Below, piece after piece: positions 17,799 through 37,202 of a stretch of DNA of 64,000 nucleotides. The stretch is from Clostridiales bacterium (GTDB lineage Bacteria > Bacillota > Clostridia > Oscillospirales > CAG-272): positions 10,730 to 74,729 of the forward strand of contig JAAYQM010000001.1 in the NCBI GenBank assembly GCA_012519315.1. The letters run 5' to 3'. Each line of letters opens with the position of its first letter. The first letter of the stretch is position 1. Below the pieces are notes generated by a model that did no database searches, was not told the DNA's origin, and worked only from the letters and a program-made list of their open reading frames with translations. The position numbers and the translations under genes were made by a program.

Positions 17799-17827
17799 GC
17801 ATATGATTGTATCCCGGCGCATATAAT
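17799..17827 (+). promoter_or_regulatory. Sigma-E-like (mother-cell) promoter candidate
   Basis: GCATATG, 14 nt spacer, CATATAAT. Compared with my recollection of the B. subtilis sigma-E consensus (kmATATT-N14-CATACAhT). It lies 34 nt upstream of the DUF3794/LysM start codon. Confidence 0.35.
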
Positions 17828-17860
17828 TTAGCAAACAAATACCGCAAAGGAGCACTAAAT

Positions 17861-19486
17861 ATGGACAAAACATCAAATATTCCGGGACGGGGATTTACCC
17901 TTTCACCCGATGAAGCTCTGGTGCAGTACGATATCGTTAACGATTGTATTTATACCGAAAGTGTCGGTGATTTTGTGCTGCCCGATTATTTACCTGAAAT
18001 CCGGCGGATACTGCGTGTCAGCTCACGCATTTTGCCGGCCGGGAAATACATAGGAGGAGCGAAGGCCGAGTTTGCCGGTACCGTTGTGCATTCGGTTATT
18101 TATACCGGTGAGACAGGAGCCCTTGCGGCGGCAAATTTATCGTCCGATTACGAGTTTTCGGTGCCCCTCGGCGAGCAGGCGCAAAATTGCGATCCTATCG
18201 TATATGCGAAGAGCGAGATTGATTCGGTTGTTTGCCGGCTCGGCGGACCGAGGAAACTGAGTATTCGGACAAAAATTAAGGCATGCCCGCATATTCTGTG
18301 TCAGCAATCCCTTGAGGAGCGGATTGAAGGGCGGGAAACCGCAGAGGATGAGTTTTCTATCGAGCGATTGACAAGGAATGAAAAAACAATGCATACGGCA
18401 TATGGCGCGATGCAGGATATCCAGCTTAGCGATAATATAAAGCTGGACGGGCGGGATGCCGCTAATGTGCAGCCGGTGCAGTGTGAGGGCGTTGTGCATA
18501 TCGTAGAATCTAAGGCAACTAACGGTGGGGTAAATGTTCGGGGCGAGGTTTGGATCAGGTGTCTGTGCAATGAGCAAGGGGAGGAAGAAGTTCATCCCTT
18601 TTTGATAACCAGGCGTATCCCTTTTGATCAATTTGTGGAGATAGAAGGGGTTACAAAGGATTATGAGAGCCGGACCATCGGACGTTGCTCGGCTATTGAT
18701 ATTGTCTGCGATCCTGAAGGGGCGGGGGGAATGACCTGCGATGTAACAATTGATCTGGAGACCGAGGCTGTGAAAAATGAGGGCATTACCCTGACGGAGG
18801 ATCTGTATTCTACCCAATATCAATGCGATTGTGAGTATCGTGATGTTGTCCTGACCTCCCTTGTCCGCTGTACTGAGGGGAATTTCTCGGTAAGCGGAAG
18901 CATGGAGCGCACCGAAGGGGATGCCGCACGTGCTGTGGCCGTTGTTGATATCGGAGGGAGCGCACAGGTAGAAAGCATGGATCTTTCACACGGTCGTTGT
19001 ATTATTAGCGGAACATGCAAAATAAACGCGCTGCTTTTATGTGCTCCTGAAAATCCGGAGAGCAACAGTTCAAATGAGCTGACAAATGCGGAGTTTATCT
19101 TCCCGTTTAAGGTGGAATTTGAGAATGTCGAGGTCGGCGGACAATATGAATGGGATTGTCCGGCGGAGATTATTACCGGAAGAGGGCGGCTGGACGGCAA
19201 TCAGCTTTATGCTGACATGGAGATTGCCCTATGCCCGAGAATAATCGAAAAGAAGAAGATACGTACGATTGCCAGAGCACGGTTGAATAAGGATATGCCT
19301 GTCGAAAAGGATGGAGCCTCCCTCAGAATTTATTATCCGGAGCAAAGAGAAACTCTTTGGGAGGTGGCAAAGCGTCACCATGCCTCTCGTAAGGTGTTGG
19401 CTGAGTTGAACGAATTGGATGCGATCAGTATGAATGACTGCAATTGCTGTCATTCGTTGGACGGTCTCTCCTATTTGATTATTTGA
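17861..19486 (+). CDS. DUF3794-repeat protein with a C-terminal LysM domain (SipL/SpoVID-like spore-coat morphogenetic candidate)
   Basis: Has VLPDYLPEIRRILRV (DUF3794-type). C-terminal LysM: LRIYYPEQRETLWEVAKRHHASRKVLAELNEL. RBS aaaggag. Confidence 0.65.
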   Translation: MDKTSNIPGRGFTLSPDEALVQYDIVNDCIYTESVGDFVLPDYLPEIRRILRVSSRILPAGKYIGGAKAEFAGTVVHSVIYTGETGALAAANLSSDYEFSVPLGEQAQNCDPIVYAKSEIDSVVCRLGGPRKLSIRTKIKACPHILCQQSLEERIEGRETAEDEFSIERLTRNEKTMHTAYGAMQDIQLSDNIKLDGRDAANVQPVQCEGVVHIVESKATNGGVNVRGEVWIRCLCNEQGEEEVHPFLITRRIPFDQFVEIEGVTKDYESRTIGRCSAIDIVCDPEGAGGMTCDVTIDLETEAVKNEGITLTEDLYSTQYQCDCEYRDVVLTSLVRCTEGNFSVSGSMERTEGDAARAVAVVDIGGSAQVESMDLSHGRCIISGTCKINALLLCAPENPESNSSNELTNAEFIFPFKVEFENVEVGGQYEWDCPAEIITGRGRLDGNQLYADMEIALCPRIIEKKKIRTIARARLNKDMPVEKDGASLRIYYPEQRETLWEVAKRHHASRKVLAELNELDAISMNDCNCCHSLDGLSYLII

Positions 19487-19500
19487 GGCAAGCAAACAGC

Positions 19501-19544
19501 ACGCCCCTCAAGGTCTGTATAGACCTTGAGGGGCGTGCTTTTTT
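19501..19544 (+). terminator. Intrinsic terminator
   Basis: Perfect 16-bp stem acgcccctcaaggtct / agaccttgaggggcgt, 4-nt loop, then a T-run. Confidence 0.85.
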
Positions 19545-19748
19545 ATGACGGCTGTTCTCGAGGGTTTATTTGTATGGTAATAGGGAAGAATATATGGTAT
19601 AATGATCCCAAGAAAAGATAACGCAATTCGCCGCTGGCGAATTTAGAAATTTGCCGCACTAAGTAGCGTAAAGCTGTGAGTGGCTGCAAATTTATGGTAT
19701 TAGTAAGCGTGACGATAGCTTATAAAATATAGCTGAAACGGAGAATCT

Positions 19749-20585
19749 ATGAAAACCCTGTATATTTCAGATCTTGACGGTACTTTGCTTAATTCATCCG
19801 CGGCTTTGACTCCTTTTGCGATAGAAACACTCAATCGCCTCATTGAAGAGGGTATGCATTTCACCGTTGCAACCGCAAGAACAAGCGCCACGGTTACCCA
19901 TATGCTGGCCGATGTGGCAATGAAGGTGCCTGTTGTTCTGATGAATGGTGTTGCGATTTATGATATGGCGCAGGGCTGTTATGTTGAGACAAACAATATC
20001 CCTGAGCAATCACGAGCTTTTATATTTGAGGTGCTGCGATCGGAGGGGCTGGAGGGATTTCTATATGTAATTGAGGACAATGTGCTGTCAACCTTTTATG
20101 AGAAGATTGACTCCCCTCACGCAAAGCTTTTTGTTGAGGAGCGGGTGAGCCGCTTTGGAAAAAGCTTTGTAAAGGTCGATTCCTTCTACAGCTGCGCTGA
20201 TAAAAATGTTGTTTATTATTCTGTTGTCGATACCAAGGAAAGGCTGCAATCGGCATATGAGAGGCTGAAGAGGGACAGTCGGATTTGTGTAGAGTTTTAT
20301 CGTGATATTTACTATCCTGAACACTGGTATCTTGAAATTTGCTCAAGACTTGCATCAAAGTTTCATGCGGTGCAACGCCTGCGCAGAGGATACGGCTTTG
20401 ATAAAGTGGTGAGCTTTGGGGATAATTATAACGATCTTTCCCTCTTTGAGGCGAGTGATGAGTGCTATGCCGTTGAGAATGCGAAGCCTGAGGTGAAGGC
20501 AAGGGCAACCGGTGTTATCGGGGATAATGGCAACGACGCCGTTCCTCGATGGTTGCTAAAAAATTATAATAAATCAAAAGATTGA
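19749..20585 (+). CDS. Cof-type HAD-IIB phosphatase
   Basis: Has ISDLDGTLL (motif I), TVATAR, and GDNYNDLSLF (motif III/IV). Confidence 0.8.
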   Translation: MKTLYISDLDGTLLNSSAALTPFAIETLNRLIEEGMHFTVATARTSATVTHMLADVAMKVPVVLMNGVAIYDMAQGCYVETNNIPEQSRAFIFEVLRSEGLEGFLYVIEDNVLSTFYEKIDSPHAKLFVEERVSRFGKSFVKVDSFYSCADKNVVYYSVVDTKERLQSAYERLKRDSRICVEFYRDIYYPEHWYLEICSRLASKFHAVQRLRRGYGFDKVVSFGDNYNDLSLFEASDECYAVENAKPEVKARATGVIGDNGNDAVPRWLLKNYNKSKD

Positions 20586-20592
20586 AGGCAAA

Positions 20593-21084
20593 ATGAATCA
20601 AAAACGCAGATTATCACATTTTTTAGGTCCCGTATATGATGAAAAATCGAGGGTATTAATTCTAGGGACCTTTCCTTCTGATAAATCGAGGGACTCCGGC
20701 TTTTTTTACGGACATCCTCAAAATCGATTTTGGCGGGTTTTGGCGGCAATTTTTGAATGTGAGCTGCCCAGGACAATAGAACAAAAACGTTCCTTGTTGC
20801 TGAATAACGGGGTCGCTCTTTGGGATGTTATCGAGAGCTGCGAGATTGTCGGGTCGAGCGACAGCAGCATTCGCAATGTTATCCCCGCTGATGTAGGTTT
20901 TGTTTTAAGAAACAGTCCGATCGAAGATTTGTATGCAAACGGAAAAATGGCAGAAAAGCTTTATAAAAAGCATTTGGAAGGGAAAATCGGCAAGAAAATA
21001 ACCGCATTGCCCTCAACCAGTCCGGCAAATGCGGTCTATTCTCTTGAAAGATTGATCGACACCTGGTCGATAATAAGGGGCTAA
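20593..21084 (+). CDS. Uracil-DNA-glycosylase-superfamily protein, probably DNA-deoxyinosine (hypoxanthine) glycosylase, family 6
   Basis: Has LILGTFPS..S...GFFYGHPQNRFW and PSTSPAN near the C-terminus. Confidence 0.65.
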   Translation: MNQKRRLSHFLGPVYDEKSRVLILGTFPSDKSRDSGFFYGHPQNRFWRVLAAIFECELPRTIEQKRSLLLNNGVALWDVIESCEIVGSSDSSIRNVIPADVGFVLRNSPIEDLYANGKMAEKLYKKHLEGKIGKKITALPSTSPANAVYSLERLIDTWSIIRG

Positions 21085-21215
21085 AGCCCGTTCTATATAT
21101 GTGGGAAGGTTTGAGACACAGGCTATAGGTAGATTTCTTGCATATAAGCTTGAATGAGTGTTTTGCAAAAAACACTTTTGCTGTCGGCCTCCGATGATAT
21201 CATTTGCGGCAGGCA

Positions 21216-22193
21216 TTAAGCCCGCTCATACTGCTGATAGAGGGAAGAGGCGCCGATGATGCCTGCATCGTTGCCAAGCTTTGCTATTTTAATCTGAGTT
21301 TTTATTGGCTGTAGGCGGGTGTACTGCTCTTTGTTTATGATGGGGATCAGCGGTTCTATCAGATGTTCGCGCTCATTGCTGATACCGCCGCCGATGCACA
21401 ATACCTCCGGCTGGAAGATATTGATGATGTTTGTAAGACCGCACGCCAGATAGCCAGTGTATTTTTCGACAACTTCCGCCGCTGCTTTGTCCCCCTGTCT
21501 TAAGGCGTCAAAGGATGTTCTTCCGGTTATTCTCCCGTTATTCTCCTTGACAAGCTTAGACATGATGGTTTTGCGCCCGTTTTTCTCGCATTCCTCGATT
21601 TTTTCACGGGTCATGCGGATCAATGCGGTTGCCGAGCTGTAGGATTCCCAGCAGCCCTTTCTTGTGCAGGAGCAGGGATAACCATCATACTCAATGACAA
21701 TGTGGCCAAGCTCTCCGGCTGCATGATTAAAGCCGGAAAAAATGGAGTTGTTGACAATGATCCCGCCGCCGACTCCGGTACCGAGGGTGATCATTACCGA
21801 GTTTTTGCTGCCCTTTGCAGCGCCGGCGATTGCCTCGCCATATGCGGCGGCATTGGCATCATTTTCTATATATATGTTTTTTAGGGGAACAAAACTCTGA
21901 AGTATCTTCGCTATCGGAAAATTGATGAAGGGGAGATTGTTGGCATATTCAACCGTTCCGGTTGCCGGATTGGCAGTTCCCGGAGTTGCAATACCGGTGT
22001 GGGAGATATCATCTGCCGTCAGCCCCGCCTTATTTAGCAAGTCTTGGATCAGCTGTGCCATGCTGGCGATGATATCCTCCGGAGCGCGGTCGGCGCCTGT
22101 GGGAACACTGCCTTTAAAAAGAATTTTATAATGGTCGTCAACGATACCGGCGGCAATATTTGTACCGCCGAGGTCAATTCCTAAATTATACAT
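21216..22193 (-). CDS. glcK: ROK-family glucokinase
   Basis: Has GIDLGGTN. ROK signature GAAKG..N...ITLGTGVGGGII. Zn-binding site GHI....G..C.C...GCWE. The start is at the MYNLGID methionine (RBS aggaagg). Confidence 0.85.
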   Translation of the reverse strand: MYNLGIDLGGTNIAAGIVDDHYKILFKGSVPTGADRAPEDIIASMAQLIQDLLNKAGLTADDISHTGIATPGTANPATGTVEYANNLPFINFPIAKILQSFVPLKNIYIENDANAAAYGEAIAGAAKGSKNSVMITLGTGVGGGIIVNNSIFSGFNHAAGELGHIVIEYDGYPCSCTRKGCWESYSSATALIRMTREKIEECEKNGRKTIMSKLVKENNGRITGRTSFDALRQGDKAAAEVVEKYTGYLACGLTNIINIFQPEVLCIGGGISNEREHLIEPLIPIINKEQYTRLQPIKTQIKIAKLGNDAGIIGASSLYQQYERA

Positions 22194-22502
22194 TTTGTTA
22201 CCTTCCTGTTGAATTGTTTTTATATACAAATATCTTTATATGACATTATAATATAAATAGTATTGCGATGTCAATTTAAACATAAAAGTTTCTCTTCGGG
22301 GGCATTCATGGAAAATTAACATTTTTCGATAGGGCTAAACTTGCAATTGGGATGAAAAAGGTATAAAATAAAGGATACATCTGATTATATAATTATTGTA
22401 TTAACGATTGTATCATAAAAAAATTTACTCATGAGATTATTATATCATGAAACTATCTACATGAAAGGTGATTTATCATATAACGATAAATAACGGAGAA
22501 AT

Positions 22503-23669
22503 ATGAGAGAAGTATATGTCGATAATGCAGCTACTACCGCTGTTTTGCCGGAAGTTATCGATGCCATGATGCCCTATTGGATTGAAAAATGGGGAAATCC
22601 CTCAAGCCTTCATTCCAAAGGGCAGGAGGTAGTGCCGGCCCTTGATAATGCCAGACAGTCAATTGCCGATCTTCTCGGCTGTTCCCGGCATGAGATTTTT
22701 TTTACCTCAGGGGGGAGCGAATCGGACAATTGGGCGATCAAGGGTGTTATGCGACGTTCTGGCGGGAAAAAACATTTGATCACCACTCAAATAGAGCATC
22801 ATGCGGTTTTGCACACCTGTAAGGCTCTTGAAAAAGAGGGCTATAAGGTTACCTATATCGGGGTTGACGAGAGGGGAATTGTAAAGCTTTCCGAACTTGA
22901 GGCCGCTATTGATGATGATACAGCCCTTGTGGCAGTGATGATGGCTAATAATGAAATCGGAACAATACAGCCTATTAAGGAAATCGTAAGGATCGCTCAT
23001 TCAAAAGGGGTGTTGGTATTTACCGATGCTGTTCAGGCGGTGGGTGCCATTCCGGTTAATGTACAGGATTTGGGGGTTGACCTGCTCGCGCTTTCCGGGC
23101 ATAAATTCCATGCGCCGAAGGGAATTGGCGCCCTTTATGTCCGCAAAGGGGTGCGGCTGCAAAGTCTTATTGATGGAGGCGGGCAGGAGCGCGGACGCCG
23201 TGGCGGAACGGAAAACGTTGCAATGGCTGTCGCTCTTGCGAAAGCGCTTGAGATTGCGGTGGCGAAATTGCCGGAGAACGATCGGATTGTCGCCATGAGA
23301 GACAGGCTGATTGACGGTCTGATGAAAATTCCACATACGATTCTGAATGGTGACCGAAGTCAGCGCTTGCCCGGAAATGTAAATGTCGCTTTCGAATTTA
23401 TTGAAGGGGAAAGCCTGATTTTGCTCTTAGACAGAGCCGGCATTTATGCCTCAACAGGCTCTGCCTGTTCGACAGCCTCCCTTGATCCTTCGCATGTGCT
23501 GCTTGCTCTGGGACTTCCTCACGAGAAGGCACACGGCTCGTTACGTTTATCCTTGTCTCATGAGAATACCGAAGAGGATATAGATTATATTCTTGAGACA
23601 GTGCCCGGTATTGTAAAGCGGCTCAGAGACATGAGCCCGCTTTATAACAGCCGAGGAAACAGTAAATAG
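22503..23669 (+). CDS. nifS: Cysteine desulfurase NifS
   Basis: PLP lysine context SGHKFHAPKG. Active-site loop SSGSACS-like (STGSACSTAS). Confidence 0.9.
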   Translation: MREVYVDNAATTAVLPEVIDAMMPYWIEKWGNPSSLHSKGQEVVPALDNARQSIADLLGCSRHEIFFTSGGSESDNWAIKGVMRRSGGKKHLITTQIEHHAVLHTCKALEKEGYKVTYIGVDERGIVKLSELEAAIDDDTALVAVMMANNEIGTIQPIKEIVRIAHSKGVLVFTDAVQAVGAIPVNVQDLGVDLLALSGHKFHAPKGIGALYVRKGVRLQSLIDGGGQERGRRGGTENVAMAVALAKALEIAVAKLPENDRIVAMRDRLIDGLMKIPHTILNGDRSQRLPGNVNVAFEFIEGESLILLLDRAGIYASTGSACSTASLDPSHVLLALGLPHEKAHGSLRLSLSHENTEEDIDYILETVPGIVKRLRDMSPLYNSRGNSK

Positions 23670-23694
23670 GTTTTTATAAATTAGGAGAATTAAG

Positions 23695-24159
23695 ATGAAA
23701 TATAGTGAAAAGGTAATGGATCACTTTTTGAATCCGAGGAATGTTGGTGAGCTTGAGGACGCCGATGGCATCGGAACTGTGGGAAATGCCAAATGCGGCG
23801 ATATTATGCAGATATTTATAAAGGTTAAGGATGATGTTATTACCGATGTTACCTTTAAAACATTCGGCTGCGGCGCCGCTATTGCGACATCGTCGATTGC
23901 TACCGAAATGATAAAAGGAAAGACCGTTGAGGAGGCGCTTAAGCTGACAAACAAATCGGTGGTTGAAGCGTTGGAGGGACTTCCCCCCGCTAAGATACAT
24001 TGTTCGGTATTGGTTGAAGAGGCGGTAAAATGCGCCATTTCCGACTATTATAAGCGTCGGGGAATCGAGACCGATATTCTCAAGGACGGCAGCAGCTGCG
24101 ATAATTGTGCGTGTCCTCATTCACATACCCATACACATAAGACGACAACCGGTGAGTAA
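23695..24159 (+). CDS. nifU: Fe-S cluster scaffold NifU/IscU-like, with a His/Cys-rich tail
   Basis: Has GNAKCGD, FKTFGCGAAIA and HCSVL. Tail: CDNCACPHSHTHTHK. Confidence 0.9.
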   Translation: MKYSEKVMDHFLNPRNVGELEDADGIGTVGNAKCGDIMQIFIKVKDDVITDVTFKTFGCGAAIATSSIATEMIKGKTVEEALKLTNKSVVEALEGLPPAKIHCSVLVEEAVKCAISDYYKRRGIETDILKDGSSCDNCACPHSHTHTHKTTTGE

Positions 24160-24164
24160 AGACT

Positions 24165-25223
24165 GTGGAAAAGCGTGTTTTACTCGGCATGAGCGGCGGG
24201 CTTGACAGCAGCTATTCGGCGATGGTTCTTGCCGAAGATGGTTACACTGTAGAGGGTGCCGTTCTTAAAATGCATGATGATACCGATGTGGCGGCAGCGC
24301 AGGAAGTGGCCGATTCTCTTGGGATCTCTCTTAGGGTGATTGATTGCCGGGAGCGATTTGAGAATTGCGTTGTCAACAATTTTATAGAGGAATATGCGAA
24401 AGGGCGAACGCCAAATCCCTGCGTTCGGTGCAACAGCGAGGTAAAGTTTGATCTTTTGTGCCGGACTGCCGATGAGGCGGGGATTCCCTATGTGGCAACA
24501 GGACATTATGCCCGGCTTGCCTATATTAAAGAAACCGGACGATATTGCATTGAGCGGGCAGCAGATTTGCGCAAGGATCAGAGCTATGTACTCTGGCGTC
24601 TTGAGCAGCAACAGCTTGCGCGTCTTATATTCCCCCTTGGTACTCAAACAAAAGAGGCAGTCCGTATTGTAGCCCGGGAACGTCGGCTGTCGTCGGCTGA
24701 CAGACCTGAGAGTCAGGAGATTTGCTTTATCCCGGACGGTGATTATGTTCAATTTATTGAGCAGAAAAAGGGTCCTTTCACACCGGGGGATTTTATTGAT
24801 ATTAACGGAAAGCGTGTCGGACAGCATAAAGGCATCATCCGCTATACCATAGGTCAGAGGAAAGGGCTTGGTCTTTCTATGGGAGAGCCGGTTTTTGTCG
24901 GTAAAATTGACCCGATAGAAAATACGGTGACCGTTGTGCCCTCCGAATTTACCTATTCTAACCGGCTTTTTGTCGAAGAGCTTAATTTTTCAGGAATGCA
25001 TCCGATGCAAAAGGGGAAAAAACAACTATATGTCAAGCTTCGCTATCTCGCGCCCCTTGTTTTAGCCGATGTTACTTTTTGTTCCGGGGGAGCGTATGTT
25101 TTTCTTCATATGCCGGCTCGGGCGGTGACCCCGGGGCAATCTGCCGTTTTTTATGAGGATAATAGAATTGCATTTGGGGGCATCATTTCCGGAAATCGAT
25201 CCATTCCTGATGAAAATCCTTGA
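24165..25223 (+). CDS. mnmA: tRNA 2-thiouridine(34) synthase MnmA
   Basis: PP-loop GMSGGLDSS, NPCVRCN, and DQSY..W. GTG start 5 nt after the nifU stop. Confidence 0.9.
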   Translation: MEKRVLLGMSGGLDSSYSAMVLAEDGYTVEGAVLKMHDDTDVAAAQEVADSLGISLRVIDCRERFENCVVNNFIEEYAKGRTPNPCVRCNSEVKFDLLCRTADEAGIPYVATGHYARLAYIKETGRYCIERAADLRKDQSYVLWRLEQQQLARLIFPLGTQTKEAVRIVARERRLSSADRPESQEICFIPDGDYVQFIEQKKGPFTPGDFIDINGKRVGQHKGIIRYTIGQRKGLGLSMGEPVFVGKIDPIENTVTVVPSEFTYSNRLFVEELNFSGMHPMQKGKKQLYVKLRYLAPLVLADVTFCSGGAYVFLHMPARAVTPGQSAVFYEDNRIAFGGIISGNRSIPDENP

Positions 25224-25224
25224 A

Positions 25225-25279
25225 AATCAATCCTTGATAAAATCAATTCTTGATTTTGAAACCAAGGATTGATTTTTTG
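25225..25279 (+). terminator. Intrinsic terminator of mnmA (nested long hairpin plus U-tract)
   Basis: Outer arms aatcaatccttg / caaggattgatt. Inner arms aaaatcaa / ttgatttt. Followed by a T-run. Confidence 0.7.
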
Positions 25280-25668
25280 ATAATCCGGCGGCTATTCCGC
25301 AAGTTTGTGCAATATGCCCAAATGTAGAATTTTTCACAGATTTATTGTGCAAATAGACCAAAGTTAAATGCCAGAATTAGTCTAAATCGCTGTATAGTTC
25401 AAATCCCGAAAAGGTAAATTACAATTACTAATTTTAGCGAAAAAAGCGAACAACGTCAAATAGGCAAATAAATGTTATAAAAATGCTGTATTCGCATACA
25501 ATTTTATATAAAAATAGTAAGCTAAATTTACTCACCCTGTTTTGGCGTGGCTTACCATTTGAAAAAACGGACTTCCGATTGAAATAATATGAGTTTTTAA
25601 TGGCTTATGTCAAGGGGGAAAGGGCGGATTATCAAGCTTGTCAAGGGCTTTGGGGAGAACGACGTCTC

Positions 25669-25697
25669 TTGACAATTGCCAAGGGGTGTGCTATTAT
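25669..25697 (+). promoter_or_regulatory. Sigma-A-type promoter candidate for the 26.1-38.2 kb cluster
   Basis: TTGACA, 17 nt spacer, TATTAT. If this promoter is used, the leader is about 385 nt. Confidence 0.55.
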
Positions 25698-26086
25698 TAT
25701 CATGTGCAAAAATCATACAAAAACGAGCATTTTACATAATTCTCTTGTGCTTTTTTTGTAACATTGCCTATATTCGCCATATTATTGCAATTTCGGTATG
25801 ATATCGCGTGGCGTAAGAATTTTGCTTTTAGCCCGCAGACAGCCCGCCCTTGCCTGTATTGTTTATTAAATGGTTAAGTAGCTTGTGTTTTGCAATGCGA
25901 AGTCGCCTGTATTGATGCGTGCAAGACATGAGCTTTACTCCTGTTTATACGGGAAAAGCGCGGGAACTCTGAGGGAGTATCGTTGAATAGCGCAACACGC
26001 TCTCAACGCTATGGAGCGTTCTCGTTGCCGATTATTATCGGAGCATCGATGTGCTTCGGATATCTTTGTAGGAGGAAAGATTTTTA

Positions 26087-29053
26087 ATGGGAAGAAACAA
26101 ATTTATCAGATTAACAGCTCTGTTGTTGTCTCTGCTAATGGTCGGCGGCTTTTATGCGTTGCCTGCTGCTGCGGCTGAAGATAGCAAGCAAGCATCGTCG
26201 TCAACTCGCACGCTCGAAGAATTAAAGGAATTGCTGAATACCATCTCATATAGCGGGTATTTAGCTAAATATTCTAATGTGCCAAGGGCTACATCGAGCA
26301 TTTTAATCGACGCAGCCGATTACGATGAGGAAAATACGACTGCAGAGGTTGAAGTGCGCAGCAATTATGAGGGGAAGTCGGGCGATTCCCTTTTTATTCC
26401 TGAAAGCGGCACTGTCTCCTGGTCGGTTGATATTCCTGCCGACTCACTTTATAACATAAAAATTGAGTATTATCCGATTGTTGCAAAATCATCGTCAATC
26501 GAAAGAGTCTTCCTTATTAATAATAAGGTTCCTTTCGCTGAGGCGAGATATCTTGTAATGTCTAAGGTATGGACAAACTCATATCTTACCGATGACGAGG
26601 GCAACCCGGCCTACCGCAAGGATCTTGGGGGGAACGATCTTCGTGTGCAAACCAATCAGACTCCTGAGTGGCGCACCTATGTTTTTTCCGATTCCAGCGG
26701 TTATTATAAGGGAGCCTTTGAGTTTTATTTTGAAAAGGGCACTAACATCATTTCTCTGGAAGCTGTCAGAGAGCCTGTTGTTATAAAATCGATTGAGCTT
26801 TATCGCCAGTCGGAGCTTCCTAAATATGAAGATTATCTAAAGGAAATCGAAAAGAAGAACAACACGGCGACCGATGTTGATCCTATTTATATTCCTGCCG
26901 AATTTCCGGTTGCTATTTCGGATGAGTCCATCTATGCATCTAACGACCGTACCTCGGCAATTACTGAGCCTCAGTCGGCAAAGGCCCAGCTGTTTAACGT
27001 TATAGGCGGACAGGGCAACTACAGGACCGTTGGACAGTGGATTCGGTATGAATTCGAAGTTGAGAAGGACGGACTGTATGAGATTGTCGCCCGCTTTAAG
27101 CAAGATAAGCTGGCAGGTATGTTTACCTCCAGGGTTATCAAGATTGATGGTGAAATTCTCTTTGAAGAGGCTTATAATGCCCGCTTTGAGTACTCCAAGG
27201 AATGGCAAGTGAAGGCCCTGGGTGACGGTGAAAACACCTTCCAATTTTATCTGGAAAAGGGGAAGCACACTATCGAGCTTGAGGTTGGGCTCGGAGAACT
27301 TGCCACTATACTCAACCAGGTTGAAAATACTCTTTCGGTTATCAACGATTCTTATCTTGAAATTATGAAATTGACCGGTTCTTCGCCGGATAAATATCGC
27401 GATTATGGTTTCTTCCGCATTATGCCCAATACCATTATTGACCTGCTGGTTGAAGGCCGCAACCTTGATAAGGTTTCGGAATATCTGACCGAGCTGGCAG
27501 GCGAGAAGGGGTCTCATGTTGCGACTCTTGACAAAATTTCTTTTCTGCTTAAAAAGATGGGATCTTCTGAAGATCAAATCGCAAGAAACCTGTCAAATCT
27601 AAAGTCCTATATTGGTACTCTTGGCACCTGGCTCAACAGCTCGAAAACCCAGCCATTGACACTTGACTATCTCCAGATTCAACCGGTGGGCGATCCCCTT
27701 CCTAAGGGCAAGGCCGGCGTATTTGAATCTATTTGGTTTGAGATCCGCTCTTTCTTCAACAGCTTCTGGGTTGACTATAGTGTAATGGGAGCAACCGCTG
27801 AGGTTGACACCGATGATGTCGTTGAGGTATGGATTGCCGAGGGAAGAGACCAGGCGAAGGTTATCAGAAATATGATTGACAGTATGTTTACGCCTCAAAC
27901 TGGCATTGCTGTTAACCTGAAACTGGTTGCCGGAGGAACATTGCTACCCTCTGTTTTGTCCGGACAGGGACCGGATGTTTATATTGGTCTCGGAAGTGCG
28001 GACACCATTAACTACGCAATACGCAGCGCGGTTCAACCGCTGAATGATTTTGACGGCTTTGAGGAAACGACAAAGAACTTTACCGAGGCTGCCATGGTTC
28101 CCCTTACTTTGTATGGAGAAACATACGGTTTGCCTGAGAAGATGGGCTTCCCGATGATGTTCTATCGTCAGGACATTCTTGCAAATCTGGGTATCGAAAT
28201 TCCTAAGACTTGGGAAGATGTTCTCGCTGCCGTTCCGATTCTTCAGGCAAACAATATGATGATCGGTCTTGCGCGTGAGTATGAGATGTTCCTATATCAG
28301 ATGGGCGGAGACCGTTATGCCGATGAGGGTATGAGAATCGGTCTTGAATCCAACATTGCCCTTGAGGCTTTTGATTATTACTGCAGCTTCTACACCATGT
28401 ATTCCTTCCCGGTTACTTATGATGCGGCTAACCGTTTCAGAACCGGTGAGATGCCTATTATCATTTCCGATTATACCAGCATGTATAACCAGTTAACCGT
28501 TTTTGCAACCGAGATTCGCGGACTTTGGGAATTTGTACCTGTTCCGGGTACTCTCAGGGAGGACGGCACTATTAACAACGTTTCGATTGCGGGCGTTTCG
28601 GCTGTCGTTATGCTGAACGGTGCTGATAATCCCGAAAAATCATGGGAGTTTATGAAGTGGTTTACCGGCGCTGAGGCACAGGCAAGATATTCCAACGACC
28701 TCGTTACCACTATCGGGCCTGCCGCAAAGCACAATACGGCGAACAAGTTTGCGCTTGAGGAAATGCCCTGGACTACCAATGAATATAAGAATTTGATGGC
28801 TCAGTTTGACAACCTTGCGGCTATTCCCAACTATCCCGGAAGCTATATTGTAGCGCGCTATGTAAACTTTGCCTTCCTTGCGGCATATAACGATAAAAAG
28901 AACCCTGCAGAAGAATTGTTAAGCTATATTACCATAATAAATAAAGAAATAACCAGAAAACGCAAGGAGTTTAACCTCGAAACCCTTGAGTTGGGCGAAA
29001 CCCTTGCAGAGAAAAGAGCCCGCGAGGCTGCCGGAGCAGATACCGGTAAATAG
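26087..29053 (+). CDS. Giant (988 aa) extracellular solute-binding protein: signal peptide, two CBM6-like beta-sandwich modules, a helical linker, then a family-1 carbohydrate SBP domain
   Basis: Signal peptide LLSLLMVGGFYALPAAAAE, with no lipobox Cys. Module 1: SGTVSWSVDIPADSLYNIKIEYYP. Module 2: VGQWIRYEFEVEKDGLYEIVARFKQ. The last ~400 aa are SBP_bac_1-like (VVEVWIAEGRDQAKV..., GPDVYIG, YGLPEKMGFPMMFYRQD). RBS aggagga. Confidence 0.8.
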   Translation: MGRNKFIRLTALLLSLLMVGGFYALPAAAAEDSKQASSSTRTLEELKELLNTISYSGYLAKYSNVPRATSSILIDAADYDEENTTAEVEVRSNYEGKSGDSLFIPESGTVSWSVDIPADSLYNIKIEYYPIVAKSSSIERVFLINNKVPFAEARYLVMSKVWTNSYLTDDEGNPAYRKDLGGNDLRVQTNQTPEWRTYVFSDSSGYYKGAFEFYFEKGTNIISLEAVREPVVIKSIELYRQSELPKYEDYLKEIEKKNNTATDVDPIYIPAEFPVAISDESIYASNDRTSAITEPQSAKAQLFNVIGGQGNYRTVGQWIRYEFEVEKDGLYEIVARFKQDKLAGMFTSRVIKIDGEILFEEAYNARFEYSKEWQVKALGDGENTFQFYLEKGKHTIELEVGLGELATILNQVENTLSVINDSYLEIMKLTGSSPDKYRDYGFFRIMPNTIIDLLVEGRNLDKVSEYLTELAGEKGSHVATLDKISFLLKKMGSSEDQIARNLSNLKSYIGTLGTWLNSSKTQPLTLDYLQIQPVGDPLPKGKAGVFESIWFEIRSFFNSFWVDYSVMGATAEVDTDDVVEVWIAEGRDQAKVIRNMIDSMFTPQTGIAVNLKLVAGGTLLPSVLSGQGPDVYIGLGSADTINYAIRSAVQPLNDFDGFEETTKNFTEAAMVPLTLYGETYGLPEKMGFPMMFYRQDILANLGIEIPKTWEDVLAAVPILQANNMMIGLAREYEMFLYQMGGDRYADEGMRIGLESNIALEAFDYYCSFYTMYSFPVTYDAANRFRTGEMPIIISDYTSMYNQLTVFATEIRGLWEFVPVPGTLREDGTINNVSIAGVSAVVMLNGADNPEKSWEFMKWFTGAEAQARYSNDLVTTIGPAAKHNTANKFALEEMPWTTNEYKNLMAQFDNLAAIPNYPGSYIVARYVNFAFLAAYNDKKNPAEELLSYITIINKEITRKRKEFNLETLELGETLAEKRAREAAGADTGK

Positions 29054-29119
29054 TAGCTGTTGCTCAGCGGTATGCTGATTCGGCAAAGTTGATAAATACT
29101 TAGTTAAGGAGAGATGTAC

Positions 29120-30067
29120 ATGTCACAGAACACGGCAGTAAAGCGCCCTGTTTCTCGTAAGGATATGACGCGGGCACAGTGGACATGGAAGGAAATGAAG
29201 CGGAATAAGGTCGCCTATCTGATGGTGGCCCCCTTCATGATTCTGTTTACGTTGTTCACGGTATTCCCGGTTGTTCTATCGATTATTTTGAGCTTTACAG
29301 AGTTTAATCTTCTACAGTTTCCGCGACCGGTTTATATGGACAATTATATCCGGTTGTTCCTTGATGACGATATCTTTATATTAGCTATCAAGAACACTTT
29401 TATATTCGCTTCTGTTACAGGACCTGTTTCATACTTTATGTCCCTTATGATCGCGTGGTTTATCAATGAGTTGTCCCCGAAAATAAGGTCGGTTGTTACC
29501 CTGATCTTTTATTCGCCGTCAATATCGGGTTCGGTGTATTTGATTTGGCAGATTCTTTTCAGCAATGACTCTTATGGATTTGCCAACGGAACATTGATGA
29601 CTCTCGGTATTATTGATGCGCCCATCCTTTGGTTTAATGATGCAGACTACGTTATGTGGTTGTGTATTGTTGTTGCTCTATGGACATCTCTTGGTACCGC
29701 ATTCCTTTCGTTTATTGCCGGTCTGCAGACGATTGACCGCAGCCAGTATGAGGCTGCATCGGTTGACGGTATTCGCAACAGATGGCAGGAGCTGTGGTAC
29801 ATTACCCTTCCGAACATGAGACAGCAGTTGATGTTCGGTGCAGTTCTTTCGATTACTCAGTCCTTCGGATTTGGTTCTGTTGTTACTGCACTTGCCGGTT
29901 TTCCATCGGTAGAATATGCTGCTCACACAATTATGCACCATCTTGACGACTATGGCGGGCAAAGATTTGAGGTTGGATATTCGTCGGCGATTGCCGTTGT
30001 ACTCTTTGCCATCATGCTGGGATCAAACCTTCTCGTTAAGAAAATGCTTAAGAAGGTAGGTCAGTAA
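29120..30067 (+). CDS. Carbohydrate ABC transporter permease, MalF/UgpA type (pair 1)
   Basis: Six TM helices. EAA-loop region YEAASVDGIRNRWQELWYITLPNM. RBS aaggagag. Confidence 0.85.
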   Translation: MSQNTAVKRPVSRKDMTRAQWTWKEMKRNKVAYLMVAPFMILFTLFTVFPVVLSIILSFTEFNLLQFPRPVYMDNYIRLFLDDDIFILAIKNTFIFASVTGPVSYFMSLMIAWFINELSPKIRSVVTLIFYSPSISGSVYLIWQILFSNDSYGFANGTLMTLGIIDAPILWFNDADYVMWLCIVVALWTSLGTAFLSFIAGLQTIDRSQYEAASVDGIRNRWQELWYITLPNMRQQLMFGAVLSITQSFGFGSVVTALAGFPSVEYAAHTIMHHLDDYGGQRFEVGYSSAIAVVLFAIMLGSNLLVKKMLKKVGQ

Positions 30068-30071
30068 TGCG

Positions 30072-30944
30072 ATGAAAAAATTAAGAACTCGAAAACACGC
30101 AGTTGTTCTCAACCGCTCTGTAGGTGGGGACATCGGAATTAACTTTTTCCTTATTCTCATGGGAGCCTTCATGTTCCTTCCGATGCTTTATGTTGTGATG
30201 CAGTCACTTAAGCCTTTGGATGAGCTTTGGATGTTCCCGCCGCGTTTTTACGTTATTAATCCGACATTTCAGAATTTTGGTGATTTGTTTACCCTTATGG
30301 GTGAGAACTGGGTTCCGTTCTCGCGGTATGTATTTAACACAGTCTTTATCTCGATTACAGGAACATTCGGCAACCTTCTGTTTTCTTCGATGGCTGCATA
30401 TGCCCTTGCTAAGATTAAATTCCCGGGGCGTAATGTAATGTTCCAAATGATCGTTTTGTCCCTTATGTTCCACTCTACGGTAACCTCGGTTGCAAACTTC
30501 ATTACGATGAGCGCAATTGGTTGGGTTGATACATATTTTGCTATTATAGTTCCTGCGTTTAGCACAACGCTTGGCCTTTACCTTATGAAGCAATTTATGG
30601 AGTCGGCCGTATCTGACGAGGTGCTTGAAAGTGCGCGCTTGGATGGTTCCGGCGAATTTAAGACCTACTGGCTTATTGCAATGCCGATGGTTAAACCCGC
30701 ATGGCTTACCCTTATGATAGAGTCCTTTAAGGGTCTTTGGAACTCCGGGTCGTCCATCTATATTCAGAGTGAGCAGCTCAAGTCATTCAACTATGCTATT
30801 AACCAGATCGTTTCGGGCGGTATTGCCCGTGCGGGTGCCGGTGCGGCGGCAACGGTTGTTATGATGATAGTACCCATTACAGTATTTGTTATCTGCCAGA
30901 GCAATGTTATTGAAACAATGGGCTCCAGTGGAATGAAAGATTAA
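30072..30944 (+). CDS. Carbohydrate ABC transporter permease, MalG/UgpE type (pair 1)
   Basis: EAA loop LESARLDGSGEFKTYWLIAMPMVKP. Six TM helices. Confidence 0.85.
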   Translation: MKKLRTRKHAVVLNRSVGGDIGINFFLILMGAFMFLPMLYVVMQSLKPLDELWMFPPRFYVINPTFQNFGDLFTLMGENWVPFSRYVFNTVFISITGTFGNLLFSSMAAYALAKIKFPGRNVMFQMIVLSLMFHSTVTSVANFITMSAIGWVDTYFAIIVPAFSTTLGLYLMKQFMESAVSDEVLESARLDGSGEFKTYWLIAMPMVKPAWLTLMIESFKGLWNSGSSIYIQSEQLKSFNYAINQIVSGGIARAGAGAAATVVMMIVPITVFVICQSNVIETMGSSGMKD

Positions 30945-30957: not shown

Positions 30958-33084
30958 ATGAATAAAATTATAAGAATCATGCTTCTCTCCGTTTGCGCAA
31001 TCATGCTTTTGGCGCATTTTCCGATTGGCGCAGCCGAACCTTATCAGACCTATACCTACTCTATCGATGGTGTGCCCTTGTATTCTCCGGCGGCATATGC
31101 CCCTCTTATGAATGTTGACTCAAACTATATGGGGCTTAGTACACCTTTTGATGACCCGAGAGATATCTTCGTTGATAAGGATCAGAGGGTATATTTATCC
31201 GACGGGAAAAACAACCGGGTCATTGTTATGGATAAATATTATAAGGTTTCGTTTGTAATTTCTGATTTTATTAATGATCAGGGTGTTCCGGATAAGCTGA
31301 CCAATCCCTCCGGTATTTTTGTAAACGAAGACAGTATTTATGTTTGTGACACCGATGCGAATCGTATAGTCCTGTTTGACCATAAGGGTGAATTTAAGAA
31401 AATCATCCCCAAACCGGTGTCTAAACTGTTTGGATCCGATGCTATTTATAAGCCGGTTTCCATGGTTGTTGACGAATACGGCAGACTATATGTTATTTCC
31501 TCTACAACCTATCAAGGTGTTATTGTCATGACCGAAAATGGAGATTTTACCGGCTTTATCGGTGCTCAGAAGGTTGTCTATAACATCCTTGATATAATAT
31601 GGAGACGATTCCAGACAGAGGAGCAGAGAAAGGCTTCAATCCAGAATATTCCAACTGAGTTTAACAATATAACAATTGACAGTAACAATCTGATTTATGT
31701 TACCACTTCCTCGATTCCCGAGTCGAAGCAGCAATCCGCAATAACAAGCAAGTCTCCTGACTATGCGCCTGTTAAAAAGCTCAACGCCAATGGCGACGAG
31801 GTTATGAAGAGAAACGGCTTTTTTGCCCCGAATGGGGAGGTTTATGTGACCAATCGCTCAACGGCTCAAATTACCGGTGCATCAAGGATTATTGACGTTG
31901 CAGTCGGTCCTGAGGGAACATGGTCAATTGTTGATGAAAAGCGTCAAAAAGTTTTCACTTATGACTCAAACGGAAACCTGCTTTTTGCTTTTGGTGACCT
32001 CGGAAGTCAGCTTGGCAACATGACAAGCGTGAAGGCTATTGCTTATCAAGGAGATCGAATTCTTCTGCTTGATAAGACCGCTGATGTTATCACCGTTTAC
32101 AATCGAACTGAGTATGGTGATATACTGATCAGCGCCCTTGCAAATGAGAATCGAAACAATTACGACATCGCTGTTGAGTATTGGACCGAGATACTTAAGA
32201 GAAACAGTAATTTTGATGCCGCCTATATTGGTATCGGCAGATCCCTTTATCGCGAGGCTAATTATAGGGAAGCGCTTAAGTACTACGTTTCGGCTTACGA
32301 TACAGAAAACTACTCTGACGCGTTCAGAGAGATACGCAAAGAGTGGATTTCTAAGTATATCCTGACTATACCGATCGGTGCGATAATTATTATTTTCCTG
32401 TGGACTAAATTCTTGAAGTACGCAAGGAAGGTTAATGCTCGCACAGCGGTCAAGGTTGGTAAAAGAACCTTTAAGGAGGAATTGATTTACGGATTCCACT
32501 TGATATTCCATCCCTTTGACGGATTCTGGGACTTGAAGCATGAAAAGAGAGGCTCGGTTCGTGCATCACTTATCTATATTGCTGTTGTTGTTCTCTCTTT
32601 CTTCTATCAGTCCATTGGACAGGGATATGTTTTGAATCCCCGCAACTCCTATTCTACAATTGTCGCTCAGGCTTTGTCGGTTATTGTACCGATGCTCTTG
32701 TGGGTAATTGCAAACTGGTGTTTGACCACCCTCTTTGATGGCGAAGGAAGCTTTAAGGATGTTTTTGTTGCGGTATCCTATTCCCTTGTTCCTCTCCCGC
32801 TCTTCATCATACCGTCAACGATACTTTCAAACTTTGTTACCGTTGATGAATCACAGATTATTGGTTTCCTTGTAACAATTGGTTTTGTTTGGACAGGTTT
32901 CTTGATATTCTTTGGTATGATGGTTACACATGATTATACCCTTGGAAAAAATATCATTACATCACTTGGAACAATTGTTGGCATGGGCTTCATTATGTTT
33001 GTAGGGATACTCTTTACCAGCTTATTGTCGAAAGTGCTTTCATTTGTGACGCAAATTGTTACTGAGATCAGTTTCCGTATTTAG
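30958..33084 (+). CDS. Secreted NHL-repeat beta-propeller plus TPR-like segment, fused to a C-terminal Yip1-family multi-TM domain
   Basis: Signal peptide MLLSVCAIMLLAHFPIGAAEP. NHL-like blades (RVYLSDGKNNRVIVMD, IYVCDTDANRIVLFDHKGEF, LYVISSTTYQGVIVMT, and more). TPR-like helices AVEYWTEILKRNSNFDAAYIGIGRSLYREANYREALKYY. Yip1-like signature TTLFDGEGSFKDVFVAVSYSLVPLP within about 6 TM helices. Confidence 0.7.
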   Translation: MNKIIRIMLLSVCAIMLLAHFPIGAAEPYQTYTYSIDGVPLYSPAAYAPLMNVDSNYMGLSTPFDDPRDIFVDKDQRVYLSDGKNNRVIVMDKYYKVSFVISDFINDQGVPDKLTNPSGIFVNEDSIYVCDTDANRIVLFDHKGEFKKIIPKPVSKLFGSDAIYKPVSMVVDEYGRLYVISSTTYQGVIVMTENGDFTGFIGAQKVVYNILDIIWRRFQTEEQRKASIQNIPTEFNNITIDSNNLIYVTTSSIPESKQQSAITSKSPDYAPVKKLNANGDEVMKRNGFFAPNGEVYVTNRSTAQITGASRIIDVAVGPEGTWSIVDEKRQKVFTYDSNGNLLFAFGDLGSQLGNMTSVKAIAYQGDRILLLDKTADVITVYNRTEYGDILISALANENRNNYDIAVEYWTEILKRNSNFDAAYIGIGRSLYREANYREALKYYVSAYDTENYSDAFREIRKEWISKYILTIPIGAIIIIFLWTKFLKYARKVNARTAVKVGKRTFKEELIYGFHLIFHPFDGFWDLKHEKRGSVRASLIYIAVVVLSFFYQSIGQGYVLNPRNSYSTIVAQALSVIVPMLLWVIANWCLTTLFDGEGSFKDVFVAVSYSLVPLPLFIIPSTILSNFVTVDESQIIGFLVTIGFVWTGFLIFFGMMVTHDYTLGKNIITSLGTIVGMGFIMFVGILFTSLLSKVLSFVTQIVTEISFRI

Positions 33085-33106
33085 AAACAGGATAGGAGAT
33101 AATACT

Positions 33107-36100
33107 ATGAATAAATACAAATTTTTATCCGGTTTCATGGCGATACTGATACTATTCGGAGTTTTCGGTGTGTTCGGCGGTACACTTCAGATCAGTGCCG
33201 CAGATGATCAGACTGAAGAAGAGGAAATCCCTGATTATACCGATGCAAAAAATGCATATAAGACTCCCGAAGAAAAACTTGCTACGATGGTTAAAAAGCT
33301 TGACCAACACGGTTATGAGCTCTGGGTTCATGAGATAACCGGAGAAGTAGCAACAGTAGATAAGAAAACCGGACAGATTCTATTTACCAATCCCTATGAT
33401 GTTGCCGATCCTTCGAATCAGGCGTCAACATCGACAAAGGAGCAGTTGCTCTCGCAAATTATTATCAAATATACTGATAATGATACTGAAAAATTCTTTT
33501 ACAGTTATACCGAGGCAGCTCTCAGAGAACAAATCAATATTAAAAACATCAAGAACGGTATTCGTATAGAATATACCCTCGGTCGTGAGGAAACAAGATA
33601 TCTTGTTCCTCGTATGATCGAGAAATCAAGATTCGAAGAGCTGATTGTCGCCAATATCACGAATGATTTTGACAGAGGAAAGGTGACCGCTCTTTACACG
33701 TTGATGGACCCCTTTGAGGAAGGTCTTTCGGAGCGCGCTCAGAAAGAGATGCAAATCAACTTTCCTATCACTAAGAAAATGGCGGTTTACGTAATAGCCA
33801 GTGATACCAAGCCGCGTGAGTTCCGTCAGACAGAGGCTTATATTAAGACATACTGCCCGCTGTACTCATATGAAGAGCTTGAAAAAGACCATATGCTCAC
33901 AGAGTATACAGGGACAGATGTAGCACCCCCTCTCTTCAAGCTTTCTCTCGAATATACCGTTGACGAATGGGGAATGTCTGTTCGTCTCCCCGCAAACGGT
34001 ATTCGTTTTGACGAAACAACCTATAAGCTGAACGAGGTTCGCATTCTTCCTTATATGGGAGCAAACAGAGCCGAGTGCAAGGGATATACATTTATACCCG
34101 ATGGCAGCGGCGCTCTCCTTCGCTCGGAGGATCTGGCCGGCAAGAATGCAACGATAACTGGTCGGTTGTATGGTCCGGATTTTGCCTATCATACGATCAC
34201 CGGCGCCCATGTTGAAACGATGAGACTTCCTGTCTATGGAGTTGTTGAAAACTATAAAGGCAAGAAGACGATAGAAACAAGCCGGGAAGTACCTATAATC
34301 GATCCGGAGACCGGTGAGGAGACTTCGGAAACCGAAACTGTTATCGAAAAAGAAACAGTAGATTATAAGGAAGACAGAGGTTTTCTGGCAATTATTGAAG
34401 AAGGTGACGCCTTAGCGAGCATTACGTCGGCTCATGGAGGCATCGTTCACAAATACAACTCGGTTTACACCGCCTTCTTCCCAAGACCAAAGGATAAATA
34501 CAATCTTCGTGATGCGATATCTGTCGGTTCAAACGCGGAGTGGACGGTAGAGTCCTCGCGCAAATATGTCGGTAACTACCGAATCCGTTTCATTATGCTC
34601 TCTGACCCGGATATTATTGAAGAAAAATCTCTTACCAATGCCTATGAAGCAACCTGGATCGGCATGGCTAAGGCTTACAGAGAATATCTTGAGAGCAAGG
34701 GCGTTTTGAAAAGGCTGACCGAGAATGATGTGAAGAAGGATATGCCTCTTTACATTGAAACCTTTGGAGCCATTGATGCTCAGAAAAAGATCCTTTCCGT
34801 TCCGGTTACCGTCAGCGTTCCTTTAACCACCTTTGACAATGTCCGGGATATGTATAACGACCTTAAGGAAGCCGGCATTACAAATCTTAACTTCAGGTTG
34901 ACCGGATACGCAAACGGAGGTATGTCCTCAACAGTGCCCTATAAGCTAAAGTGGGAAAAGGCTGTTGGTGGCAAATCCGGATTTAAGGATCTGCTTGCCT
35001 ATGCAAAGGAGAACGACTTTGGCATTTACCCCGATTTCGACTTTGCTTATATAAACAAAACAGCAGCTTTTGACGGTGTTTCCCTTAAAAAGCACGCTGT
35101 TAAAACAATTGACAATCGTTATTCGAGTAAGCGGGTATATGACGCGGCTCTCCAGTCCTTTGTAAGCTATTACAATCTTTGCATTTCTCCCTCGGTTTTC
35201 AACCGTTTCTATACTAAACTGACTAGCAATTATTCTGAATATGATCCGATCGGGATCTCCGTTTCAACGCTTGGTACCGATCTCAACTCAGACTTTGATA
35301 AGAAAGATCCGTATAACCGTGAAGACTCTAAGGCTTTCACCGTTTGCATCTTTGAATCAATGGTCAAGGATTACGCAAGCGTTATGACCGACGGCGGTAA
35401 TGCTTACACCCTTAAATATGTCGATCATCTTCTTAATGTATCTCTTGACAGCAGCCGTTATCTTAATGCAAGCGACTCTGTTCCCTTCCTTGGGATGGTG
35501 CTGCATGGATATGTTAACTTTGCCGGTACACCTATTAACATGGCGGCCGACATTGACCATGCAATGCTGAAGGCTGTTGAGAACGGTGCGGCTCTCTATT
35601 TCACATTATCTTATCAGAATATCGAAAAATTAAAGGAAAGCGCCCTGTTTAGCAAATACTATTCGGTTAGATATGACATATGGTTTGACGAGCTTGTACA
35701 AAGATATCAGACTCTCAACGAAATTCTGGCACCGCTTCAGACGTCGCTGATTGTCGATCATTCATTCTTGATAGGTGAGCGCATTGCTGATCCTGATGAA
35801 ATAGAGGCAGATCGTATTGAAGCTGTGGAAAAGGCTGAAGCCGAAAGGCTGGAAAAAGAAAAGCAAGCCGCCAAGGAGGCACTCCAAAAGCAGAGAGAGG
35901 ATTATGAAGCGGGACTTATCCAGCCCGGTCAGACTATTGAGGTGCCACCTGTTGAGACAGAAAATGGAGACGAGACAGAACAACCGACAAATCCCGGATC
36001 TGATGAATATGTTTATACAAAGTACACATCGGACGACGGTCGCATAATAAAAGTTACCTATGAAAATGGCGTATCCTTTATCCTGAACTACAATGGATTT

Positions 36101-37184: not shown

Positions 37185-37202
37185 TGAGAAGGAGATGAAA
37201 AA

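Follow-up and report, generated by a model that had tools for sequence, protein, structure and literature searches.

The usual picture of the ATP-binding cassette (ABC) sugar importers in Gram-positive bacteria of the gut and rumen has a small lipoprotein solute-binding protein (SBP) working with two permeases, and leaves capture of the polymer itself to separate enzymes or to wall-anchored proteins. Here we compare such systems with a locus in a 64,000-nucleotide (nt) stretch of Clostridiales bacterium DNA (assembly GCA_012519315.1, contig JAAYQM010000001.1, positions 10,730 to 74,729 of the forward strand), which we call the window and whose own numbering is used throughout. The open reading frame (ORF) at 26087-29053 on the + strand encodes an SBP of 988 amino acids (aa), the giant SBP, in which two modules related to carbohydrate-binding module (CBM) families 35 and 6 precede the solute-binding domain. 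It is a real, well-defined, widespread and uncharacterised SBP variant; in the literature we found no description of the giant SBP family and nothing relevant on DUF5696 (a domain encoded by a neighbouring gene), on CBM35-SBP combinations, or on Yip1 or NHL proteins with ABC transporters. As to its role, we lean slightly towards its being the sole substrate-binding subunit of a conserved seven-gene cassette of the carbohydrate uptake transporter 1 (CUT1) type, in which the beta-sandwich modules would hold a glycan and the SBP domain would hand an oligosaccharide to the permeases.

The closest described relatives of the C-terminal part are the CUT1 SBPs of cluster B, such as Lin1841 (5ysb), Xanthomonas MalE (3uor) and a cycloisomaltooligosaccharide-binding protein (9xf5), with which its C-terminal 385 residues share a two-lobe fold. 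Like these proteins the giant SBP scores above the Pfam cut-offs for SBP_bac_8 (81.3 bits; cut-off 27) and SBP_bac_1 (68.2 bits; cut-off 26), both over residues 601-881, and it has MalF/MalG-type permease genes directly 3' and an ATPase encoded elsewhere, a separately encoded ATPase being common among CUT1 systems. Unlike them it is more than twice as long, carries an N-terminal extension of about 550-575 aa, has no lipobox, and is paired at its locus with four permease genes and two large uncharacterised proteins. The SBP domain is only 16-22% identical to any solved SBP; the closest by sequence is Lin1841, a beta-1,2-gluco-oligosaccharide SBP (E 1e-10, residues 577-868). The full-length AlphaFold model of the protein has a mean predicted local distance difference test score (pLDDT) of 84.4 and a predicted template-modelling score (pTM) of 0.77, and its SBP domain has the two-lobe periplasmic-binding-protein type II fold, which Foldseek superimposes on 5ysb, 3uor and 2zyo with template-modelling (TM) scores of 0.75-0.81 (E 1e-17 to 1e-18, about 410 columns). 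The Pfam and PDB matches and the superposition together indicate a complete domain, as follows:

27821-28972, + strand: complete CUT1-type (MalE-like) oligosaccharide-binding domain, residues 579-962 (Pfam, PDB, Foldseek).

By sequence and model this domain is putatively the part that binds sugar and delivers it to the permease. Its fold begins at about residue 577-579, and so about 575 aa precede it; an earlier note on this DNA, made from the sequence alone, had put the extension at about 550 aa.

Is a reading frame of this length genuine? An assembly or frameshift fusion, or a wrongly chosen start codon, could have produced it, and in one relative (locus L097, a low-coverage metagenome contig at 2.5x, positions 10001-12910) two genes with 157 nt between them have indeed been called, one for the N-terminal half (584 aa) and one for the SBP (332 aa). 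This explanation we regard as already refuted, with practically no probability left to it: a continuous ORF of about 950-1120 aa is present in 87 sampled genomes and in at least 530 species representatives, the full-length model is confident, and the start has a strong ribosome-binding site and an in-frame stop codon five codons 5' of the ATG. Because of that stop the ORF cannot be extended, and its start is secure. In L097 the NHL and Yip1 parts of another protein of the cassette (below) are likewise separate genes, and the locus is either a genuine split variant or the product of sequencing errors. The features at the two ends of the gene are:

26070-26075, + strand: ribosome-binding site AGGAGG, 11 nt 5' of the ATG, read from the sequence.
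26087-26176, + strand: signal peptide, residues 1-30, of the signal peptidase I (SPase I) type, with P-AAAA/E (cleavage at the stroke) and A-x-A, and free of Cys.
28973-29053, + strand: short C-terminal helix and stop codon, with no membrane anchor.

The N-terminus, MGRNKFIRLTALLLSLLMVGGFYALPAAAAE, is the Cys-free signal region that the earlier note had quoted, and it consists of a basic n-region, a 17-residue hydrophobic core, a Pro and A-x-A; we infer from this pattern a Sec signal cut by SPase I, and A29 is kept in at least 90% of 60 homologues. The only Cys of the 988 residues is C766, which lies within the SBP domain, and since the upstream stop closes the frame no choice of start codon can yield a lipobox. 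An alternative or upstream start that would create one, the possibility that the earlier note had left open, is thus excluded, and its description of a 988-aa SBP without a lipobox is borne out by the ORF, by the single Cys and by the Pfam and Foldseek assignments. Nothing matching [LVI][ASTVI][GAS]C stands at the end of the signal peptide, whereas the other two SBP_bac_8 proteins of this genome have the lipoboxes FTGC and LVSC; the organism therefore does use lipoprotein SBPs, and the giant SBP is a real exception among them. The absence of a lipobox holds for the window protein but not as a trait of the family, as an L-x-G-C box is found in the signal peptides of at least 12 of the 60 homologues, the others being without one. 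A C-terminal membrane anchor was sought in the 60 homologues and found in none. Many homologues (1040-1110 aa) have after the SBP domain an Ala-rich amphipathic helical tail of 60-100 aa that ends in ...AL-SY, and the window protein is a short form without it.

What, then, does the long extension consist of? A model of residues 31-570, built with an alignment of 60 homologues (pLDDT 90.3, pTM 0.86), shows two beta-sandwiches and then long helices, and the N-terminal half can be divided as follows:

26177-26275, + strand: residues 31-63, a disordered linker and then two short conserved helices with invariant Y55 and Y58 (model and conservation).
26276-26812, + strand: module 1, residues 64-242, a CBM35/CBM6-like beta-sandwich (model, Foldseek, hhalign, conservation).
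26870-27298, + strand: first part of module 2, residues 262-404, a CBM35-like beta-sandwich (model, Foldseek, hhalign, conservation).
27299-27646, + strand: four-helix bundle, residues 405-520, within module 2 before its last strand (secondary structure, hhalign).
27647-27688, + strand: last beta-strand of module 2, residues 521-534, TQPLTLDYLQIQPV, aligned with the N-L-D strand of CBM35.
27689-27820, + strand: connecting helix 545-559 and linker to the SBP domain (model).

The best single-domain PDB matches that Foldseek gives for the N-terminal half are isolated CBM35 and CBM6 domains, at a probability of 1.00 and with target-normalised TM scores of 0.73 (2w1w) and 0.74 (2vzp) for CBM35 and 0.59-0.65 (2cdp) for CBM6; many CBM35-carrying enzymes are returned as well. 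Structure prediction and Foldseek thus give the region a CBM fold and not some other one, and the earlier note's two CBM6/35-fold modules are confirmed (Foldseek probability 1.0, TM 0.6-0.74), as are the two motifs on which it had relied, SWSVDIPADSLYNIKIEYY at 111-129 and WIRYEFEVEKDGLYEIVARF at 318-337, each of which lies in a beta-sandwich of the model with pLDDT 90.3. When family sub-alignments of the two modules are compared by hhalign they match with 99% probability (E 4e-17). Without residues 405-520, module 2 (262-404 joined to 521-541) can be aligned with module 1 over the full length of both, last strand included (REPVVIKSIELY against TQPLTLDYLQIQP), apart from about 30 extra residues in module 1. 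Judged from their sequences the two modules are ancient duplicates. The helical region noticed in the earlier note is therefore present, at 405-520, but it is no spacer; it sits inside module 2, before the last strand (521-533). The profile of module 2 without the bundle matches a solved CBM35, CBM35-1 of the Paenibacillus sp. 598K cycloisomaltooligosaccharide glucanotransferase (PsCITase; 5x7g), at E 5e-7 over the whole module through the N-L-D strand, and also two CBM repeats of 8zvk at E 3e-6. In the first part of module 2 the loop DRTSAIT-PQ is conserved and N304, W318 and W373 are invariant; the module's last strand has invariant Q522 and D527; and in the bundle, where 28% of the columns are conserved at 90% or more, the motif YLEI-KLTG--PD-YRDYGF is highly conserved.

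With the described CBM35 and CBM6 domains (5x7g, Clostridium thermocellum 2w1w, CsxA 2vzp, agarase 2cdp) the modules therefore share the beta-jelly-roll, the conserved region-A Trp (below) and the strand pattern G-W-x-Y-x-V-x-V ... G-x-Y-x-I-x-x-R ... I-x-G ... W ... G-x-H-T-I-x-L. They differ from them in belonging to a transport SBP whose polypeptide has no catalytic domain, which leaves them outside the CAZy definition, in lacking the region-C Asn, and in carrying the 115-aa bundle in module 2 and the 30-aa insertion in module 1. The top Foldseek matches of the N-terminal half taken as a whole are C-terminal halves of three-domain Cry protoxins (8w7n, 4w8j, 9h9a; E 1e-9 to 1e-7), in which CBM-like beta-rolls and helical bundles alternate in the same way (8w7n, 4w8j). 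The global TM score is only about 0.19, which makes this a likeness in domain composition and not a shared rigid arrangement, and nothing suggests a functional link between Cry proteins and the giant SBP.

Have the modules kept a sugar site? In CBM35 and CBM6 the two most conserved signatures are a Trp of region A that stacks on the sugar and, at the bottom of the site, an invariant Asn of region C that forms a hydrogen bond with the sugar (PMC9843283). In PsCITase CBM35-1 the stacking platform of the canonical sugar site is Trp507 (PMC5408701). W373 of module 2 aligns with the Trp at chain index 488 of 5x7g, which is Trp507 in the numbering of that paper (the offset of 19 was confirmed by Gln502, Trp515 and Tyr519, which land on Q, W and Y), and hhalign gives W195 as its equivalent in module 1. 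Neither residue varies in 60 close homologues or in 11 distant ones (34-42% identity, one Paenibacillus among them), so that each module has the region-A stacking Trp. Judged from the sequence and the model, carbohydrate binding by the N-terminal modules is plausible. The polymer docking that the earlier note had proposed would rest on modules that retain one of the two signatures, the Trp, and have lost the other, the Asn (below).

The N-terminal half is far from being a peculiarity of this genome. Used alone as the query in an exhaustive search of 50%-identity clusters, it matched 851 clusters at E<=1e-30 and 1927 at E<=1e-3, the matches almost always beginning near the N-terminus of proteins of 950-1400 aa, and at least 421 of the 90% clusters hold full-length homologues of the giant SBP. 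Where these homologues have a name it is solely 'extracellular solute-binding protein'. Among species-representative genomes of the class 87 of 399 (22%), in 49 of 217 genera, encode the N-terminal half, with one to three copies in each genome and every time within an open frame of about 950-1120 aa; in a phylum-wide sample the fraction is 35 of 401. At least 530 named species-representative records carry the family, most of them metagenome-assembled genomes of gut, rumen and faecal Clostridia, and the carriers that are named include Oscillospiraceae, 'Eubacteriales', Candidatus Flemingiibacterium and one Paenibacillus. The family spans hundreds of gut, rumen and soil Firmicutes species, and the word 'atypical' in the earlier note, if taken to mean rare, does not apply to a protein with so large, conserved and architecturally fixed a family. 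One cassette contig (JAGARL010000319.1, 50% identity) is deposited as archaeal Methanocorpusculum sp. and has probably been mis-binned. The N-terminal tandem by itself or in other fusions was sought among proteins of 297-945 aa, which yielded only partial ORFs and one split gene, and a Pfam search of long members (1234-1454 aa) for wall-binding or further CBM domains gave only a weak extra CBM_35-like signal. Mean pairwise identity in the family rises from 0.47 in module 1 through 0.52 in module 2 and 0.54 in the helix bundle to 0.62 in the SBP domain.

A number of these and other observations count against glycan-holding modules on a secreted SBP. The region-C Asn is missing from both modules: the corresponding residue of module 2 (525) is T in the window protein and E, Q, M, T or R across the family, and that of module 1 (232) is V in the window protein and V, A or I across the family, the two positions being ones that we take to be equivalent to the Asn from the alignment and from general knowledge of the fold. 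In the model the helix bundle emerges beside the canonical binding apex of module 2, and it may occlude the canonical site there. Pfam gives the window protein no CBM_35 or CBM_6 match at E<=1 (only Golvesin_C, 15.5 bits), and precomputed matches to PF16990 (CBM_35) are present in a minority of homologues; on sequence grounds the modules are CBM35 homologues that do not reach the curated Pfam thresholds. No glycoside hydrolase gene that might indicate a polymer adjoins the cassette in the window. Cleavage by SPase I was called by eye from the sequence pattern. Finally, the tandem does not shuffle and its conservation comes close to that of the SBP domain, which one would not usually expect of CBMs that target a substrate. 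Binding would still be compatible with the missing Asn, since a CBM6/35-like module that lacks both signatures still binds polysaccharide (PMC9843283).

Strong conservation without shuffling is as much to be expected of a fixed structural or docking role as of glycan binding. The N-terminal half might be such a docking or scaffold device, its sandwiches and bundle holding the lipid-free SBP, and perhaps the DUF5696 protein, on the Yip1 protein or on the second permease pair in a fixed uptake complex (the cassette is described below). This is the most serious rival of the glycan-holding reading, and we think it a real possibility but a rather doubtful one. It would account for the disappearance of the region-C Asn from both modules, for an architecture that is invariant and unshuffled over at least 850 clusters, and for a bundle that is as conserved as the sandwiches, has the invariant motif PD-YRDYGF and in the model emerges at the canonical apex of module 2; the full-length pTM of 0.77 suggests fixed packing of the domains; and the SBP, DUF5696 and Yip1 proteins co-occur strictly, the two large exoproteins without lipoboxes in a genome whose other SBPs have them. 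A purely structural role hardly explains, however, why the stacking Trp is invariant in both modules, and the at least 12 of 60 homologues that have a lipobox keep the whole N-terminal half, so that tethering alone cannot be its purpose. Holding a glycan and docking are not mutually exclusive.

The same tandem might instead anchor the secreted SBP to the cell's own wall glycopolymer, in place of a lipid. Some CBM35s, for example that of CsxA (2vzp, one of the Foldseek matches here), are reported to bind uronic acids of the producer's wall, and the giant SBP has neither a lipobox nor, after cleavage of the signal peptide, a membrane segment. Against this stand the lipobox-bearing homologues that keep the modules, the conservation of the modules across families that probably differ in their wall polymers, and the absence of SLH, LysM or other wall-binding domains from the longer family members; we consider wall anchoring quite improbable.

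The gene context is conserved too. The giant SBP gene is the first of seven co-directional genes, in the order SBP, two permeases, NHL/TPR/Yip1 protein, DUF5696 protein and two further permeases, of which the last six are:

29114-30944, + strand: first permease pair, a 317-aa MalF/UgpA-like and a 290-aa MalG/UgpE-like protein (two BPD_transp_1 genes).
30958-33084, + strand: 708-aa protein with a signal peptide, an NHL propeller, TPR and a Yip1 multi-pass membrane domain; its position in the cassette is conserved.
33107-36169, + strand: DUF5696 protein, about 1020 aa from the ATG (PF18952, 484 bits).
36186-38228, + strand: second permease pair, of 332 and 341 aa, each with a basic extension at the N-terminus.

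The first permease gene begins 60 nt 3' of the SBP gene, an adjacency kept in all relatives examined, and the order SBP-P1-P2-Yip1-DUF5696-P3(-P4), with P for permease, recurs without exception in the related loci that are long enough for it to be seen (95 loci were examined and 54 of them reach the third or fourth permease, the rest ending early at a contig or flank limit). Identities across loci are 59-82% for the permeases (60 or more loci for the first pair) against 40-58% for the SBP. DUF5696 is present in 84 of the 87 genomes that have the giant SBP and in 31 of the 312 that do not (Fisher p 1e-55), these 31 mostly holding a shorter form of about 570 aa. The cassette contains no ATPase, regulator or second SBP gene, and apart from the permeases its only multi-pass membrane protein is the NHL/TPR/Yip1 protein. 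The second permease pair has no SBP gene of its own, and one giant SBP per four permease genes is the ratio kept in relatives. The N-terminus of the DUF5696 protein is a signal or anchor, Cys-free and without a lipobox, and the protein gave no PDB sequence match and no NCBIfam match; within 33056-36169 the ATG at 33107 is its probable start. This 2.0-Mb, 97% complete genome has just three systems of the SBP_bac_8 type, that of the giant SBP among them. A single MalK/MsmK-type ATPase, which includes an OB_MalK domain, is encoded in the genome, at 9189-9821 of another contig (C39), where its gene is cut by the contig end and has no permease gene adjacent; presumably the CUT1 systems share it as their energy-supplying subunit.

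Put together, the reading towards which we lean, that of a glycan-holding SBP, would operate as follows. The two beta-sandwiches, with their retained stacking Trp, would capture a glycan chain, or a long oligosaccharide, on the outside of the cell; the SBP domain would close on an oligosaccharide and deliver it to one or both of the MalFG-like permease pairs; and the orphan MalK/MsmK-type ATPase encoded elsewhere in the genome would supply the energy. Since the mature SBP appears to have neither a lipid nor a membrane anchor it would have to be held by protein contacts, the likeliest partners being the NHL/TPR/Yip1 protein or the permeases and the likeliest contact surface the conserved helix bundle. 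Gluco-oligosaccharides are a weak lead as to the substrate. A ROK glucokinase-family gene near the cassette (TIGR00744 at 254 bits, cut-off 260) might speak for a hexose product, but weakly, as it lies within a housekeeping block and may be there by mere synteny.

The functional analogue of such an arrangement would be the Sus-like surface glycan-binding proteins of Bacteroidota (of the SusD, SusE and SusF types), which hold a polymer or oligosaccharide at the surface beside an importer as is proposed here, and whose genes likewise form one operon with those of the transporter and, putatively, of a glycosidase-like protein. The analogy is one of function only: the folds, the transporter (TonB-dependent there, ABC here) and the envelope are unrelated, and capture and hand-off would here be combined in one polypeptide. 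Carried further, it would lead to a fixed surface supercomplex of monoderm bacteria, in which the NHL/TPR/Yip1 protein would scaffold the lipid-free SBP and a putatively glycosidase-like, likewise lipid-free DUF5696 protein beside two different ABC translocons, with the bundle docking and the sandwiches feeding glycan to DUF5696 and then to the SBP cleft, as a Gram-positive ABC counterpart of the Sus-like machines. This larger assembly is speculative, and we rate it as unlikely.

The cassette lies within a housekeeping block (17807-25223 and 38742-41372) that holds sipL, HAD, UDG, the ROK glucokinase-like gene, nifS, nifU and mnmA, with alaS beyond, and that is partly syntenic in 50%-identity relatives (ROK in 21, nifS in 14 and nifU in 9 of 51 loci). 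Between mnmA and the cassette there are 860 nt without ORFs (25224-26086); a search of this leader against Rfam for a riboswitch gave only sub-threshold chance matches, and a hairpin at 25213-25282 resembles an mnmA terminator.

The giant SBP family places two CBM35-derived modules and an SBP in one polypeptide, from which in this member the lipid anchor has been dropped, and the cassette, present in roughly a fifth of the sampled Clostridia species, locks that SBP to two translocons and to two large uncharacterised proteins. Should the modules bind glycans, the family would represent a widespread and unstudied route for the uptake of fibre or host glycans; should they dock, it would show that an ABC importer complex can be assembled in a new way at the surface of a monoderm cell. 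Either outcome would assign a function to several domains of unknown function.

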